Below, one piece after another: positions 9,250 through 36,354 of a stretch of 39,192 nucleotides of DNA (the first letter of the stretch is position 1; every line of letters starts with the position of its first letter). The notes below the pieces were generated by a model. It did not search any database. It had not been told where the DNA came from and saw only the letters and a program-made list of their open reading frames with translations. Position numbers and translations under genes: made by a program. This DNA is from Bacteroidaceae bacterium (GTDB taxonomy: Bacteria > Bacteroidota > Bacteroidia > Bacteroidales > Bacteroidaceae): positions 1 to 39,192 of the forward strand of contig JAILIJ010000046.1 in NCBI GenBank assembly GCA_024695315.1, written 5' to 3'.

Positions 9250-9292
9250 ATCAATCTCATAAGAAATTGTTCTTATGAGATTGATTTTTTTG
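9250..9292 (+). terminator. intrinsic terminator of the rha operon
   Basis: Perfect 15-bp stem ATCAATCTCATAAGA / TCTTATGAGATTGAT with a 6-nt loop, followed by T7. Confidence 0.85.
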
Positions 9293-9428
9293 TTTTAAAT
9301 GTCCTTTTTTTTGTGTGTAATTGTTCTTTATAAGTGTATTTTTGTCCTTTTTGTTTTGCTATTTTATAAAAAGTGTTAGATAAATGTAAAAAATACATTC
9401 AAAATATTGTGGTAATCTTATTTTTTCA

Positions 9429-9436
9429 TATCTTTG
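9429..9436 (+). promoter_or_regulatory. orphan -7 box (TATCTTTG) with no CDS downstream
   Basis: TAnnTTTG match, with a TTG about 18 nt upstream. The nearest downstream plus-strand signal is the terminator at 9569-9603. Confidence 0.4.
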
Positions 9437-9442
9437 CAATAA

Positions 9443-9603
9443 ATTATGAAGATAAATATTCATATATATATTATGCTATTGGACACATCCTCGAGGATTT
9501 ATCTAAGAGGAAAAGAGTCGTGAGGCTCTGGTCCACCCCAATAGAAATATTTAACATTTCACCTGATTATTCCTGCGCCGAGAGGTGCGGGAATAGTTTT
9601 TTT
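9443..9603 (+). ncRNA. candidate ~160-nt small RNA (promoter-to-terminator unit), family unknown
   Basis: It is bounded by the -7 box at 9429-9436 and the terminator hairpin at 9569-9594 plus a T-run. It contains the palindrome ATCCTCGAGGAT. No convincing ORF is present; the best is 25 aa. Confidence 0.3.
9569..9603 (+). terminator. strand-specific intrinsic terminator
   Basis: ATTCCTGCGCC-GAGA-GGTGCGGGAAT has two G.U wobble pairs that exist only in the plus-strand RNA, followed by AGTTTTTTT. Confidence 0.6.
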
Positions 9604-9813
9604 ATGTATATAAGGCTCAATGGTGGCAGTAGATATTTATCTGCTCAGTGGATTTTTTAGATAATTTGGAACTTTTGCTTATTCTTTTATATTATGTGCA
9701 CTAAAACTTTGTCTCTTTTGCGTACTTTCATGCAGAACAATTTATTCAATGAAGCAGAAAAATTTCTTTATTCCTACTGGGCAATTCTATGCCTATTGTG
9801 AAACAATTCATAA

Positions 9814-9891
9814 AATCACAGCGTGGTACGGTCGTACCACGGCGTGGTATGATTATACCACGGTGCGGTACGACTGTACCACAGCGTGATT
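9814..9891 (-). repeat. 11-nt phased hairpin array (GTGGTAC/GTACCAC words) inside copy A
   Basis: Seven 11-nt units form three tandem 7-bp hairpins with 4-nt loops (GTGGTAC-GGTC-GTACCAC, GTGGTAT-GATT-ATACCAC, GCGGTAC-GACT-GTACCAC). The outer 16-nt arms are 9814-9829 and 9876-9891. Confidence 0.8.
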
Positions 9892-10030
9892 TTGAAAATT
9901 TCTCTTGAATAATAGAACTATTTCTGCTGAGCATTATAATAAATTATGCGCTCAAATTAAAGAATTATTCAGCATTAAAAGTCGCATCACTGCTTACATC
10001 TAAAAATGACAACAGATCTTGTCTGCTTAA

Positions 10031-10093
10031 TCACCGTTTGAACATCGTTTGAGCACCGTTTGAATACCGCTCAAACACTGCTCAAGTACCGCC
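10031..10093. repeat. 11-bp phased CGTTTGA / TCAAAC word array (copy A)
   Basis: tcaCCGTTTGAacatCGTTTGAgcacCGTTTGAataccgCTCAAACactgCTCAAGtaccgcc has three forward and two reverse words. Confidence 0.75.
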
Positions 10094-10145
10094 AAAAAAT
10101 TGTATTGTCTTTTTTAAAAAATAATGTTTACTCCAAAAGAAAAAT

Positions 10146-10203
10146 GGCGTTCAATTACCATTCAATCATCGTTTGAGTAATGTTTGAACTGTAATTGAAC
10201 GCC
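10146..10203. repeat. 11-bp phased TTCAAT/GTTTGA array closed by a 13-bp inverted repeat
   Basis: GGCGTTCAATTAC (10146-10158) is the perfect reverse complement of GTAATTGAACGCC (10191-10203). The interior is phased as cattcaatcat/cgtttgagtaa/tgtttgaactg. Confidence 0.75.
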
Positions 10204-10344
10204 ACTTGTGTGTACGCATGTTCTCTCTAGATATTTAAAAAATTATCTATCACTTTTCGCAGTCTCAACGCTTGCCGTAGGCTTGATGAAACACACCAAA
10301 CTGAATGTTTTGCAGCATGACTAATTATGCGAAATTTGAAGGAT

Positions 10345-10629
10345 TTATAATCCGGAGAAATACGTTTTGAGTGCTTCTACATATTTCTGCATAGCGTCTC
10401 GTCCTATAGGTGTCATTCGGCAGATGGTTCGGGGCTTTGCGCCAGATGAGTCTGTCATTTTTTCTATATATCCAGCAGTTGTAAGTTTATCTATTTGTAC
10501 ACTTAGATTGCCAGCTGTAGATTCTGTTTTTTCTTTTAAATAAACAAAGTCAGCTTCCCGAGCACTAAGTAGTATAGACATTATTGCTAATCGTAATTGA
10601 CTATGAAGGAGTGGATCAAGTTCTTCCAT
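10345..10629 (-). CDS. winged-helix transcriptional regulator (small MarR/ArsR-like)
   Basis: 94 aa. It has the pattern LHSQLRLAIMSIL...FVYLKEKT..TAGNLSVQIDKL..AGYI, typical of small wHTH regulators. It overlaps the upstream membrane-protein gene by 14 nt. Confidence 0.7.
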   Translation of the reverse strand: MEELDPLLHSQLRLAIMSILLSAREADFVYLKEKTESTAGNLSVQIDKLTTAGYIEKMTDSSGAKPRTICRMTPIGRDAMQKYVEALKTYFSGL

Positions 10630-11251
10630 TATTTTGTTTTTTTGCCTTATCGTTAATTAAATGTCCAGGTATAACCATCATTATGGCGTAAGAGGCTGCA
10701 AAGCCAAGATGCCAGTCTATTGTTAATGTGGAATTTAATATGTACATTTCCATTGCCGCAATTCCAAATGTTATACCTAAAAATCCTCCAACCACTGCAC
10801 TTTTTTCTTTTAATGCAAGTCCTGTAACTGCTGTTCCTATTCCAGGTAGAAGAAGTCCAAGTACAAAGAAAATTATGGTGTGAGCTTGCTTGTGAAATAT
10901 AATGAAGTAGACAATTATGATTGCGGCTATAATAAAGGAATATGAAACCAGTTTCCATATAGAATTAATCATGTATGTTGAATAATTCTCTGCTATTCCT
11001 TCTTTTGGCTTTCTATTATATAATATAGAAAGTAAACAACCTATAAATGGCAATAAAACATAAATCCATGCTGCACTATTTCCGAAATTTAATAATTGTA
11101 GTATCCATACCAAACATCCAATAATCACACTTGTATATCCCCAGATTAGAAATGTGGTTCCACTACCTATAGGTAAATTATCTTTTGTTTGCTGGATCAT
11201 TTGAGTGATAAGTTCTAGACTTTCTTTCTCTGTTATATTTTTTTCTTCCAT
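10616..11251 (-). CDS. polytopic membrane protein, unknown function
   Basis: 211 aa with a cytoplasmic helical N-terminus and about 6 hydrophobic segments. It is translationally coupled to the wHTH gene. Confidence 0.65.
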   Translation of the reverse strand: MEEKNITEKESLELITQMIQQTKDNLPIGSGTTFLIWGYTSVIIGCLVWILQLLNFGNSAAWIYVLLPFIGCLLSILYNRKPKEGIAENYSTYMINSIWKLVSYSFIIAAIIIVYFIIFHKQAHTIIFFVLGLLLPGIGTAVTGLALKEKSAVVGGFLGITFGIAAMEMYILNSTLTIDWHLGFAASYAIMMVIPGHLINDKAKKQNNGRT

Positions 11252-11285
11252 TTTTTTATTGTTAAAATGTTGGTAAAATTTTTGG

Positions 11286-11445
11286 TTTATTTTATAAACT
11301 CAAAATCTAAAAAGAGAAGCAAGGAGTCCGGCTCTCACTTGCTTTTATTTGCGCAAATCTTCTTTTTTTATTGTTTACTGCTGCAAATGTATGATGATTT
11401 ATTTTATAAACCAAGGAAAATAGGCATAAAGTTTATTTTATAAAC
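11286..11445. repeat. three direct copies of TTTATTTTATAAAC
   Basis: Exact 14-mers at 11286-11299, 11398-11411 and 11432-11445, in the intergenic region between the LuxR-type gene and the membrane/wHTH operon. Confidence 0.8.
11306..11350 (-). terminator. hairpin terminator after the LuxR-type gene (T-runs on both strands)
   Basis: AGCAAGGAG / CTC(A)CTTGCT stem at 11318-11343, with CTCTTTTT downstream on the minus strand and TTTATTT downstream on the plus strand. Confidence 0.5.
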
Positions 11446-11538
11446 CATTTTTTTTGTTTCATTAAAAAAAATAAGAAGAAACTTTACTTTTATTGCGGTA
11501 TCAGAGGAAGTATTACGTCTTTTGTTAGAATTTTTATA

Positions 11539-16292: not shown

Positions 16293-16525
16293 TCCTTCGT
16301 ATCGATTTTTTTGAAATGTTAAAAAGTGTGTTAAATCTTGTAAAAGATAGGAAAAATAGGCATTATTGTCATGTTTTTACTACCTTAGAACATTCATCTG
16401 ACGAGTCGCGTCTATCTCCGATTCCAACTGGGGGTGAGCTAAAATTTCAAATGTACGAAATCGATACTCATCAGCAATGGAATACGAATGTGATACGAAG
16501 GAGATACGAAGCGTTGTCGAAGGAG
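16293..16525 (+). repeat. TACGAAGG-word element (family shared with 30393-30526)
   Basis: CGAA recurs at 16485, 16496, 16507 and 16518, an exact 11-nt spacing (aataCGAAtgtgataCGAAggagataCGAAgcgttgtCGAAgg). TCCTTCGTATC (16293-16303) is the perfect reverse complement of GATACGAAGGA (16492-16502). Confidence 0.75.
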
Positions 16526-29401: not shown

Positions 29402-29423
29402 CATATCACAATCTATATGTTTA

Positions 29424-29535
29424 GGCTGTGTTTGAGCAATGCTTGAATGGTGCTCAAGCACAGCTTAAATAAGTTCAATCGTTTAATGTTTGTTTAACGG
29501 CCATTAAATGTTCGTTTAATGGATGTTAAATGTTT
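29424..29535. repeat. ~11-bp phased TTGA/TCAA/TTAA word array (10 units)
   Basis: Word cores start at 29432, 29443, 29454, 29465, 29475 and at 29483, 29494, 29504, 29516, 29526. Nested inverted repeats: CTGTGTTTGAGC/GCTCAAGCACAG (11 of 12, with the mismatch a G.U on the plus strand), TGCTTGA/TCAAGCA, CCATTAAA/TTTAATGG. Confidence 0.75.
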
Positions 29536-30392: not shown

Positions 30393-30526
30393 TTGTCAAT
30401 TTGTAAGTTCTCCTTCGGACGCCACTTTCCTTTTGATAATTGACATTTCACGAAAAAGTTACGAAGGTAATACGAAGGAGAATAAAAGGTAATACGAAGC
30501 GTCTCGGAGTAACATTTTGTCAATTT
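30393..30526 (+). repeat. TACGAAGG-word element (family shared with 16293-16525)
   Basis: gtTACGAAGGtaaTACGAAGGagaATAAAAGGtaaTACGAAGCgtcTCGGAG, with CGAA at 30462, 30473 and 30495 (11-nt grid). TTCTCCTTCG (30408-30417) is the reverse complement of CGAAGGAGAA (30473-30482). TGTCAATT occurs at 30394 and 30518, with an inverted AATTGACA at 30438. Confidence 0.75.
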
Positions 30527-35818: not shown

Positions 35819-35902
35819 TGTTTTTTGTGACATTCAATATTTATTTTTTTATGTCTTATTATGTAAAAGTGTAAAAATAGTGTTCAAACACCGTTTTGAG
35901 CG

Positions 35903-35935
35903 GTGTTTGAGCAGTGTTTGAGCAGTGTTTGAGCA
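35903..35935 (+). repeat. three perfect tandem copies of GTGTTTGAGCA
   Basis: Copies at 35903-35913, 35914-35924 and 35925-35935, preceded by the 9-bp hairpin CAAACACCG-TTTTGAG-CGGTGTTTG (35885-35909). Confidence 0.9.
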
Positions 35936-36079
35936 GGTTAAATTTATTGAAAAATGTATGTTGGTTCTTAGAAGTAAGCTGTGATGGGGCATTTAATGCT
36001 GGATATTTCTTTCATTCGAGCGCAAAAAATTTTGTAAAGTTCAGCAAGAATAGTTCTATTATTTAGGATGAATTTCACG

Positions 36080-36157
36080 AATCATTCAATGGTACGGTCG
36101 TATACCTAAATGTTACAGTCATACCATTGAATAGTACACCCGTACCATTGAATGATT
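36080..36157 (+). repeat. 11-nt phased hairpin array inside copy B, closed by a perfect 16-bp inverted repeat
   Basis: AATCATTCAATGGTAC (36080-36095) is the exact reverse complement of GTACCATTGAATGATT (36142-36157). The interior is 46 nt, the same length as in copy A. Confidence 0.85.
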
Positions 36158-36354
36158 TTAAGAATTTTTTCGCAATAGGCATAGAATCGCCCAGTAGGAA
36201 TGAAGAAATTTTCCTGCTTTGATGAATAAAATATTCAGCATTATGGTTTCGCTAAAGGGGGAAGGTTTTAGCGTATGTAAAAAAAATATTGCATCAAACC
36301 AATAGCTTGATGTTCGGCTACTTTCGTGAAGGTTGAAGTGTTATTGATATTTGT

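Follow-up and report, generated by a model that had tools for sequence, protein, structure and literature searches.

Repetitive extragenic palindromic (REP) sequences and bacterial interspersed mosaic elements (BIMEs) are short extragenic palindromic units, which often lie just behind the 3′ ends of genes. They form regularly spaced clusters mixed with other short motifs into a mosaic, their subtypes differ by complementary stem changes, and they are lineage-specific in presence and variable in abundance (PMC2817692, PMC3333891, PMC3733652). A REP unit is tagged by a GTAG or CGTC tetranucleotide at one end of the palindrome, outside the stem (PMC3733652). MITEs (miniature inverted-repeat transposable elements) are non-coding intergenic elements with inverted-repeat arms and a long hairpin, missing at orthologous sites of close relatives and found beside unrelated genes (PMC3184786, PMC11602168). 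In quasi-palindromes, template switching perfects the repeat (PMC7202029) and creates compensatory-looking hairpin changes (PMC8794818). Here we describe two homologous intergenic loci, copy A (winA) and copy B (winB), which lie on opposite strands of a 39,192-nucleotide stretch of DNA from a Bacteroidaceae bacterium (contig JAILIJ010000046.1; the whole stretch is referred to as the window). On balance, we regard the two copies as a dispersed repeat of rumen Prevotellaceae that is intergenic, non-coding and hitherto undescribed, with a palindromic minisatellite of 21-bp units at its centre and an action most likely at the DNA level.

Palindromic arrays in the window and in related bacteria

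At the centre of each copy lies a tandem array of four units at 21-bp spacing. The unit is a 17-bp palindrome, GTACC-N7-GGTAC, separated from the next by four spacer nucleotides (RGTC or GACY). In copy B, the array occupies positions 36079–36158 on the plus strand, with units at 36079–36095, 36100–36116, 36121–36137 and 36142–36158, 4-nt spacers and the consensus GTACC-ATTGAAT-GGTAC. That of copy A occupies 9813–9892 on the minus strand, with units at 9813–9829, 9834–9850, 9855–9871 and 9876–9892 and the consensus GTACC-ACGCCGT-GGTAC; here Tandem Repeats Finder (TRF) reported a period of 21 and 3.4 copies at 9817–9888, in agreement with a direct-repeat search. Read along the minus strand, copy A is aaatc ACGCTGT GGTAC agtc GTACC GCACCGT GGTAT aatc ATACC ACGCCGT GGTAC gacc GTACC ACGCTGT gattt. 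In the same frame, the N7 segments of copy B are ATTCAAT, CCTAAAT, ATTGAAT and ATTGAAT. Among the half-sites (GTACC plus three bases), seven of the eight in copy A carry ACG or ACA, and seven of the eight in copy B carry ATT.

The original prediction had described these loci as a 16-bp long-range stem kept by compensatory substitutions between the two copies. Direct reading and a repeat search recovered the arms as described. In copy B, AATCATTCAATGGTAC (36080–36095) is the perfect reverse complement of GTACCATTGAATGATT (36142–36157), with 46 nt between them; on the minus strand of copy A, AATCACGCTGTGGTAC (9891–9876) pairs with GTACCACGCTGTGATT (9829–9814), again enclosing 46 nt, by 13 Watson–Crick pairs, two G·T pairs and one C·C mismatch over the 16 positions. 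A perfect inverted repeat of 16 bp with its arms within about 100 nt should, by our own estimate, turn up approximately 1e-3 times per 39 kb, so the repeat is not due to chance. The stretch that begins with AATAGTTCTATTATT and ends with CAATAGGCAT measures 134 nt in either copy (36049–36182 and 9922–9789) with zero indels in the alignment, the 46-nt interior is 59% identical (27/46, counted by hand on the alignment; about 60% had been claimed), and the paired differences between the arms of A and B are present in the sequence. The arms are, however, the terminal half-units of a tandem palindromic array and no stand-alone stem. Those of copy B and of copy A (9876–9891 and 9814–9829) belong to the two outer units and consist of the outer half-units plus AAT and ATT; the tandem nature of the interior had been overlooked.

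Thirteen further arrays were found, two in rumen metagenome-assembled genomes (MAGs) of GTDB and 11 on metagenome contigs. Loci recovered by pattern scans or synteny are labelled L001–L133. The array-geometry pattern gave L040 (Prevotellaceae) and L099 (Bacteroidaceae RGIG6920) among the GTDB matches listed, and a stricter pattern gave the 11 contigs. A related array with AAGCCTT as N7 and TCGC as spacer is present on an Alloprevotella contig. Each relative contig carries one array. Throughout the 15 arrays the 21-bp phasing is exact, with no indels; GGTAC/GTACC and N7 positions 2 and 6 are near-invariant, and the N7 types of the family (ACGGCGT, ACTAAGC, ATTGAAT and AAGCCTT) are all palindromic or nearly so.

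Within this fixed geometry, the units turn over. Their number is three (L114), four or five (L119), and the five-unit L119 and the four-unit L040 have a common right flank. N7 types are replaced at orthologous loci: L040 carries CCTTAGT, GCTAAGC, ACTAAGC and ACGCCGT, its orthologue L099 CCTTAGT, ACTAAGC, ACGGCGT and ACGCCGT, which corresponds to types T,T,T,C versus T,T,C,C, and such mixing is common among the arrays. In L121, a flank unit of 22 bp was lost or gained. The arrays are also homogenised internally, half-site identity being 0.71 within and 0.53 between arrays (0 of 5000 permutations were as extreme); between copies A and B it is 0.30.

Pairing of the terminal arms was compared over the 12 four-unit arrays, copies A and B included. 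Arms were well paired in copy B (16/16), copy A (13 plus two G·T) and L116 (14/16) only. The other nine arrays have 10–11 Watson–Crick pairs of 16, essentially the invariant AAT/ATT and GGTAC/GTACC, and two to five variable-centre positions that are unable to pair even when G·U is counted. Over the 12-sequence alignment the stem was 77.6% paired compared with 75.3% in shuffles, and columns 5, 6, 8, 9 and 10 were unpaired in five to nine of the 12 sequences. Nine of the 12 arrays thus vary at the arms without keeping the pairing, a pattern that the original prediction had itself named as speaking against selection on the 16-bp stem, and we abandon that claim. The double changes, read as compensation, instead reflect a 3-mer common to the whole array, ACG/ACA in A and ATT in B. 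In an array of uniform type every half-unit complements every other, which gives the appearance of a 16-bp long-range stem. Replacement of ACG units by ATT units alters the two arms jointly and so accounts for the double changes.

The strongest covariation was found for unit-centred dyads (0.179 versus 0.104; none of 500 shuffles reached a higher value), and the three hairpins modelled locally over the spacers were 85.4% paired. Columns 50 and 52 are GC in six arrays, UA in six and unpaired in none. As these columns are one base apart, they cannot pair in a hairpin, and the signal therefore represents palindromic unit identity and not RNA folding. The RNAalifold consensus is a global hairpin of columns 11–70 only, which leaves out the variable part of the predicted arms; in this model, junctions 1 and 3 have mutually pairing spacers (AGTC with GACT; one subfamily has them swapped). 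What stands of the proposed folded structure is a dyad-symmetric element able to form hairpins or a cruciform, without the selected 16-bp stem. A DNA cruciform, which had been offered as an alternative to an RNA, fits the dyad symmetry at unit level that recurs across the family.

These observations suggest how the element may evolve. The array is set between mirrored arms of 11- or 22-bp-period repeats, by which the whole element becomes a long imperfect palindrome. Units would be gained, lost and replaced by replication slippage, unequal recombination and gene conversion. Slippage or unequal exchange may occur between the invariant GGTAC-N4-GTACC junctions, so that type switches would fall at junctions, and intrastrand template switching could copy one arm of a quasi-palindrome onto the other and thereby keep the units palindromic. 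Turnover and template switching together would yield compensatory-looking double changes without selection on a particular stem. Any function would then most likely reside in the DNA, which could offer helically phased dyad-symmetric sites that are bound by protein or prone to form hairpins or cruciforms, as in REP/BIME elements.

The whole element and its likeness to known repeats

The homology between the two copies is about 420 bp long. By alignment and profile search it extends from 35859 to 36299 in copy B (plus strand, approximately 75% identity) and from 9686 to 10099 in copy A (minus strand). Around each array, a core of about 250 bp forms an imperfect palindrome, as shown by an nhmmer profile built from copies A and B, which matched both in reverse orientation. 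In copy B this core covers 35992–36243 (plus strand), with outer arms TAATGCTGGATATTT... and ...AAATATTCAGCATTA and a self-reverse match of E = 1e-16; in copy A it covers 9719–9990 (minus strand), with a self-reverse match at 9719–9984 of E = 5e-23. Because the element is palindromic, it is ambiguous how copies A and B are oriented with respect to the other subfamilies. When the flanks were aligned about the dyad for a count of G·T versus A·C mismatches, the arms were only about 55–60% colinear.

Two blocks beside the arrays are conserved between A and B, namely AATAGTTCTATTATT at 36049–36063 (plus strand; 9922–9908 on the minus strand in copy A) and CAATAGGCATAGAATnGCCCAGTAGGAAT at 36173–36201 (plus strand; 9798–9770 on the minus strand). 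The GGCATRA core of the latter recurs in relatives on the same side of the array, e.g. as TTCGGCATAAACAG. The octamer ATAGGCAT occurs six times in the window compared with 1.6 expected, five times in intergenic DNA (9789, 11420, 16356, 30368 and 36175) and once within a gene (25684); two of these form part of the conserved block, one in each copy. Further out, repeat searches and TRF identified modules with an 11-bp period. Copy B carries 3.8 copies and one inverted copy of GTGTTTGAGCA at 35870–35936 (plus strand), which together give a terminator-like hairpin on the minus strand (35910–35884), and copy A carries its 11-bp-period module in two clusters at 10018–10199 (minus strand). The flanks of relatives are built from other motifs, with GTTCCCGAACAATTCTT recurring on one side at intervals of approximately 22 bp and its complement on the opposite side, so that the family is defined by its centre and by a mosaic, dyad-symmetric layout.

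Copy A is situated between convergent genes, behind two terminators, and copy B between the terminator of a TPR/HTH gene and an operon for an extracytoplasmic function (ECF) sigma factor. Among the relatives, the context is convergent for L040, L099, L116 and L124, divergent for L114, L123 and L125, and tandem contexts occur too; of nine contexts tallied, five were convergent and three divergent. The neighbours are unrelated and include a TonB receptor, alaS, an esterase, a fabG-like gene, PAP2, HU-HIG, the rha operon and the ECF sigma factor. Copy A is missing from the syntenic relatives L128–L133, in which the RhaD protein is 95% identical, and copy B is missing downstream of the 85%-identical orthologue of a 540-aa gene (L001). 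From the unrelated neighbours and the absence in syntenic relatives it follows that the element is lineage-specific and tied to no gene. L088 was not accepted into the family, as its array apparently lies within a gene with a 7-aa repeat (by eye).

With REP sequences and BIMEs the family shares short extragenic palindromes, which in REP sequences measure 20–40 bp and can form a stem-loop (here 17-bp units and 14-bp junction palindromes, all intergenic), regular clustering, lineage-specific presence and subtypes that differ by complementary changes. A mosaic of several motif families is clear, with palindromic units that have no orientation and spacers with the polarity F,F,R or R,R,F, which falls short of strict alternation. 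It differs in that the units stand head-to-tail at a strict 21-bp period, whereas REP units alternate in orientation with variable linkers, and in that the whole element is itself a palindrome of about 250 bp. No GTAG or CGTC tag adjoins the units in the 15 arrays, the spacers being RGTC, GACY or TCGC, and no gene for the REP-associated tyrosine transposase (RAYT, of the Y1/HUH type) was seen in Pfam scans of 28 window open reading frames (ORFs) and 10 neighbours in relatives. The likeness to MITEs lies in the non-coding nature of the element, its size of 250–420 bp, its inverted-repeat arms around the imperfect-palindrome core (in L040 they reach TTTTTTGTGTTTG and CAAACAGAAAAAAA on opposite sides), its fold into a long hairpin, its place beside unrelated genes and its absence at orthologous sites of close relatives. 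In contrast to MITEs, no recognisable target-site duplication, sharp conserved termini or known parent insertion sequence or transposase was found, and the centre is conserved with very different flanks between subfamilies, the reverse of a typical MITE. With minisatellites, or variable-number tandem repeats (VNTRs), and with quasi-palindrome hotspots (PMC7202029, PMC8794818) the family has in common three, four or five units in close relatives, flank-unit turnover, within-array homogenisation and double changes which preserve the arms and may arise in one mutational step; ordinary VNTRs have neither palindromic units nor dispersal as a family over unrelated loci. A REP/BIME- or MITE-like palindromic minisatellite is the best reading, and we file the family as a member of neither group.

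Several points weigh against this. The flank subtype of A and B is known from this window alone; the conserved flank 20-mer AATAGGCATAGAATNGCCCAG had 0 matches in the GTDB scan, and viral contigs yielded 0 matches to this 20-mer, 0 to a left-flank pattern and 0 to the array pattern. The window holds only two copies and each relative contig one, where REP sequences number tens to hundreds per genome. Mobility is deduced from presence or absence and varied contexts only: no transposase was found in the Pfam scans of the window ORFs and of the neighbours in relatives, no recombinase among the window genes, no RAYT gene, and no recognisable target-site duplication at the borders of A, B or L040, where relatives have about 80% nucleotide identity in the flanking genes and offer no clean empty site. 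Metagenome contigs can be chimeric at repeats, and some of the variation in context may be an artefact. All four N7 types are palindromic and junctions 1 and 3 keep complementary spacers, which may result from true selection on dyad symmetry, by a protein dimer or a hairpin, and not from a mutational mechanism alone. Finally, for array plus flanks in the relatives, one strand folds 9–33 kcal/mol better than the other, and in L040 the G·U pairs number 11 on one strand versus one on the other. Such asymmetry is of the kind expected of a transcribed hairpin or of single-stranded DNA, and it is the best point in favour of either.

Protein binding, RNA and termination as alternatives

Alternatively, the array might serve as a platform to which a protein dimer binds; this protein could be a regulator, a nucleoid-associated protein or a centromere-like factor. 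It would bind cooperatively to successive 14-bp GGTAC-N4-GTACC sites or 17-bp units, which face the same side of the helix at a distance of two turns. Iterated operator or centromere-like arrays of this type include ARG boxes, set in tandem with a spacing of 21 bp, and parC of plasmid R1 with its 11-bp iterons. The present arrays resemble them in having dyad-symmetric or direct sites at one or two helical turns, with a one-face geometry for cooperative binding, and 11-bp iterons beside copies A and B. The exact phasing in all 15 arrays, the near-invariant half-sites and N7 positions 2 and 6, the covariation centred on units, as for dyad-symmetric sites, and the 11- and 22-bp periods of the flanking modules are all consistent with such a platform. 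In many genomes of Solirubrobacterales and other Actinomycetota (L006, L009, L010, L027, L036, L053, L065 and others), two GGTAC-N4-GTACC palindromes 7 bp apart lie immediately upstream of what appear to be start codons; the pair, of the same 21-bp geometry, resembles a conserved double operator. Unlike operators or centromeres, the arrays come without a linked regulator or partition gene and without a regulated promoter, and they are spread over many unrelated chromosomal contexts, among them convergent intergenic regions with nothing to regulate. No neighbouring gene or regulator is conserved, unit number differs among close relatives, and several N7 types within one array would be odd if N7 sets specificity. 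Isolated single GGTAC-N4-GTACC sites were not present outside the arrays in the window, which excludes a regulon of single sites there. We judge the platform possible but rather unlikely.

We do not think that the element encodes a dedicated structured RNA. In this explanation, a small RNA (sRNA) or a hairpin cluster in a 3′ or 5′ untranslated region would be made from one strand with the array as hairpin apex, its dyad kept by selection for RNA pairing with tolerance of G·U. Copy B(+) folds with −87.6 kcal/mol (z = −8.4) and copy A(−) with −95.8 kcal/mol (z = −10.3), but the opposite strands fold well too (z = −6.6 and −9.7), so that both strands of both copies beat their shuffles, as any DNA palindrome would. 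An RNA transcribed in the B(+)/A(−) sense, as proposed in the original prediction, was not borne out, since the array alone folds better as A(+)/B(−) and only the array with 90-nt flanks folds better as A(−)/B(+). The strand asymmetry and G·U excess of the relatives speak for an RNA; they disagree with the array of copies A and B, and the excess may be inherited from one common ancestor. The RNAalifold hairpin with its covarying spacer pairs also counts in favour, but the best covariation joins positions one base apart and mixed-type arrays abolish the long-range stem. When the fold of copy B was mapped on A, 60 pairs were unchanged, 14 were changed but kept and 20 were broken; of eight double changes kept, six lie in the array and two, which would support an RNA, in the outer arms. 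No promoter box of the Bacteroidetes type was seen to be conserved between A and B (by eye only), and the elements lie behind terminators in divergent, convergent and tandem contexts alike. A search of the window and 16 loci gave no Rfam match at the gathering score; in E-value mode only miRNA-precursor models appeared, at 18–21 bits compared with gathering scores of 61–100. Taken together, these data make a structured RNA unlikely.

A wider reading starts from Flavipsychrobacter MAGs, which carry a dispersed repeat of the 21-bp geometry (a 14-bp palindrome, two to four units) in high copy number, at least 53 arrays being present in 375 kb. This element (L005–L113, about 50 loci in three MAGs, e.g. 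L052 7280–7480) consists of a conserved head of about 110 nt, GGTATAAAGGGGTATAAAAG and two to four copies of GGTATAWWTATACC-N7. Its neighbours are unrelated, with no recurrent nearby transposase and no Rfam match; in a search for a cognate transposase, ORF clustering gave common paralogue families only (NHL/T9SS proteins and ABC transporters). As the pattern used in the scan picks out this geometry, the likeness to the Prevotellaceae arrays need not reflect homology. Conceivably, GGTAY-N4-RTACC every 21 bp might mark a dispersed class throughout Bacteroidota that is recognised or propagated by a protein, either a domesticated recombinase or transposase or a nucleoid factor. In Prevotellaceae, selection would then maintain the palindromic form of the 7-nt cassettes ACGGCGT, ACTAAGC, ATTGAAT and AAGCCTT, which arrays would exchange with one another, and the elements would mark the edges at which variable gene cassettes are prone to recombine, for instance the 1.85-kb insert by copy A and the differing left neighbours of L040, L119 and L120. 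We put this forward as speculation and think it quite improbable.

A bidirectional intrinsic terminator or insulator, whose GC-rich hairpins, bordered by AAAT and, at the other end, by ATTT(T), would halt transcription coming from either direction, is very unlikely. A-runs and T-runs bracket both arrays, convergent contexts are frequent (5/9), and the scan for terminators flagged CGTGGTACGACCGTACCACG followed by CTGTGATTTT within array A (9841–9822, minus strand), but gave no hit in array B. The T-runs of relatives are 3–4 nt long, with just 3 nt in GATTTAC, three contexts are divergent, and canonical terminators already lie between genes and element (36312–36292, 9250–9285, 9565–9598 and the GGGGGCTTTTTT hairpin in L040).

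Other candidates could be dismissed. A CRISPR array, in which direct repeats of 24–48 bp alternate with unique spacers of about that length, does not agree with a 21-bp period, a 7-nt palindromic variable part and window scans free of cas genes; a restriction-site decoy does not agree with a GTAC observed/expected ratio of 0.99 in the window, i.e. no avoidance; and a large segment able to invert between copies A and B, which are oppositely oriented, is contradicted by the lack of a recombinase, the identity of only about 75% and the ordinary pectin and rhamnose utilisation genes in between.

Neighbouring features and significance of the repeat family

The window is ordinary chromosome with a rhamnose operon, pectin-degrading enzymes, regulators and a toxin–antitoxin pair. 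The sequences of three window proteins were looked up for exact matches, and none was on record. Throughout the window GATC (observed/expected 0.45), GGCC (0.49) and CCGG (0.58) are under-represented, which is consistent with restriction–modification pressure.

A segment of about 1.85 kb (9669–11520), comprising copy A, an HTH_34 winged-helix gene (10345–10629, minus strand) and a 211-aa ORF (10616–11251, minus strand), is absent in L128–L133, where an sRNA-like terminator lies about 120 nt from a GerE/LuxR gene. Copy A is thus located at the border of a variable cassette. Upstream of the operon of the 211-aa ORF and HTH_34, the 15-bp palindrome GTTTATTTTATAAAC occurs three times (11285–11299, 11397–11411 and 11431–11445; 0.31 expected) and is probably the operator of the HTH_34 regulator. 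The array was rejected as operator of this gene, as the operon has its own triple palindrome and copy B is without such a neighbour.

Between rhaD and copy A, a probable small RNA gene is predicted at 9430–9606 (plus strand). It has a Bacteroidetes-type −7 box (TATCTTTG) at approximately 9434–9441 and a strong terminator at 9565–9598 followed by T7. Its last 71 nt (9536–9606) are 88–90% identical to L128–L132, compared with 68–80% for flanking genes, and other intergenic DNA could not be aligned. The promoter box and the GATAAATATTCATATATAT start are kept in relatives; no Rfam match was obtained. At the same position, just downstream of rhaD, L128 (10890–11100) and L130 (3040–3560) contain a different repeat of about 44 bp (by eye), TTGCTGTCTGTGCTATTTGAATTTGGTT..., in differing copy number, which is another fast-evolving intergenic minisatellite.

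The loci L040, L099 and L121 versus L119 and L120 show one element and right neighbour (fabG-like) next to three different left genes: a TonB-dependent receptor, a gene ending ...PLWQSFNAN and one with a methyltransferase-like C-terminus (the latter two by eye). Their common sequence begins at a terminator hairpin, GCTCCCTAT...ATAGGGGGCTTTTTT, the upper stem of which varies compensatorily. The differences at the left junction indicate either a rearrangement hotspot or chimeric assembly at the repeat.

Tandem repeats with a period of 11 or 22 bp are found in further intergenic regions as well as beside the two copies (29420–29535, 10032–10069, 35895–35936 and 9285–9329). The cluster at 29420–29535, downstream of a GH95 gene, resembles the GTGTTTGAGCA module without the palindromic core. 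A second dispersed motif with an 11-bp period, (A)TACGAAGG(AG), is present in two unrelated intergenic regions (16482–16515 and 30460–30505), both of which end in ATACGAAGCGT. Helical-period repeats seem to be a general trait of intergenic DNA in this genome.

The two copies also hold a caution for the interpretation of such loci. Tandem palindromic units give compensatory-looking changes and conserved length by concerted evolution or template switching, and such changes are not evidence of RNA-stem covariation. The family has no match in Rfam, in phage, plasmid (blastn of the element) or viral collections, or in the searched literature, and an intergenic repeat family of rumen Prevotellaceae is thus defined that was previously undescribed. 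Since the number and type of its units vary between close relatives, the array could serve as a strain marker. If a cognate binding or mobilising protein should exist, a REP/RAYT-like system would be added for Bacteroidota.

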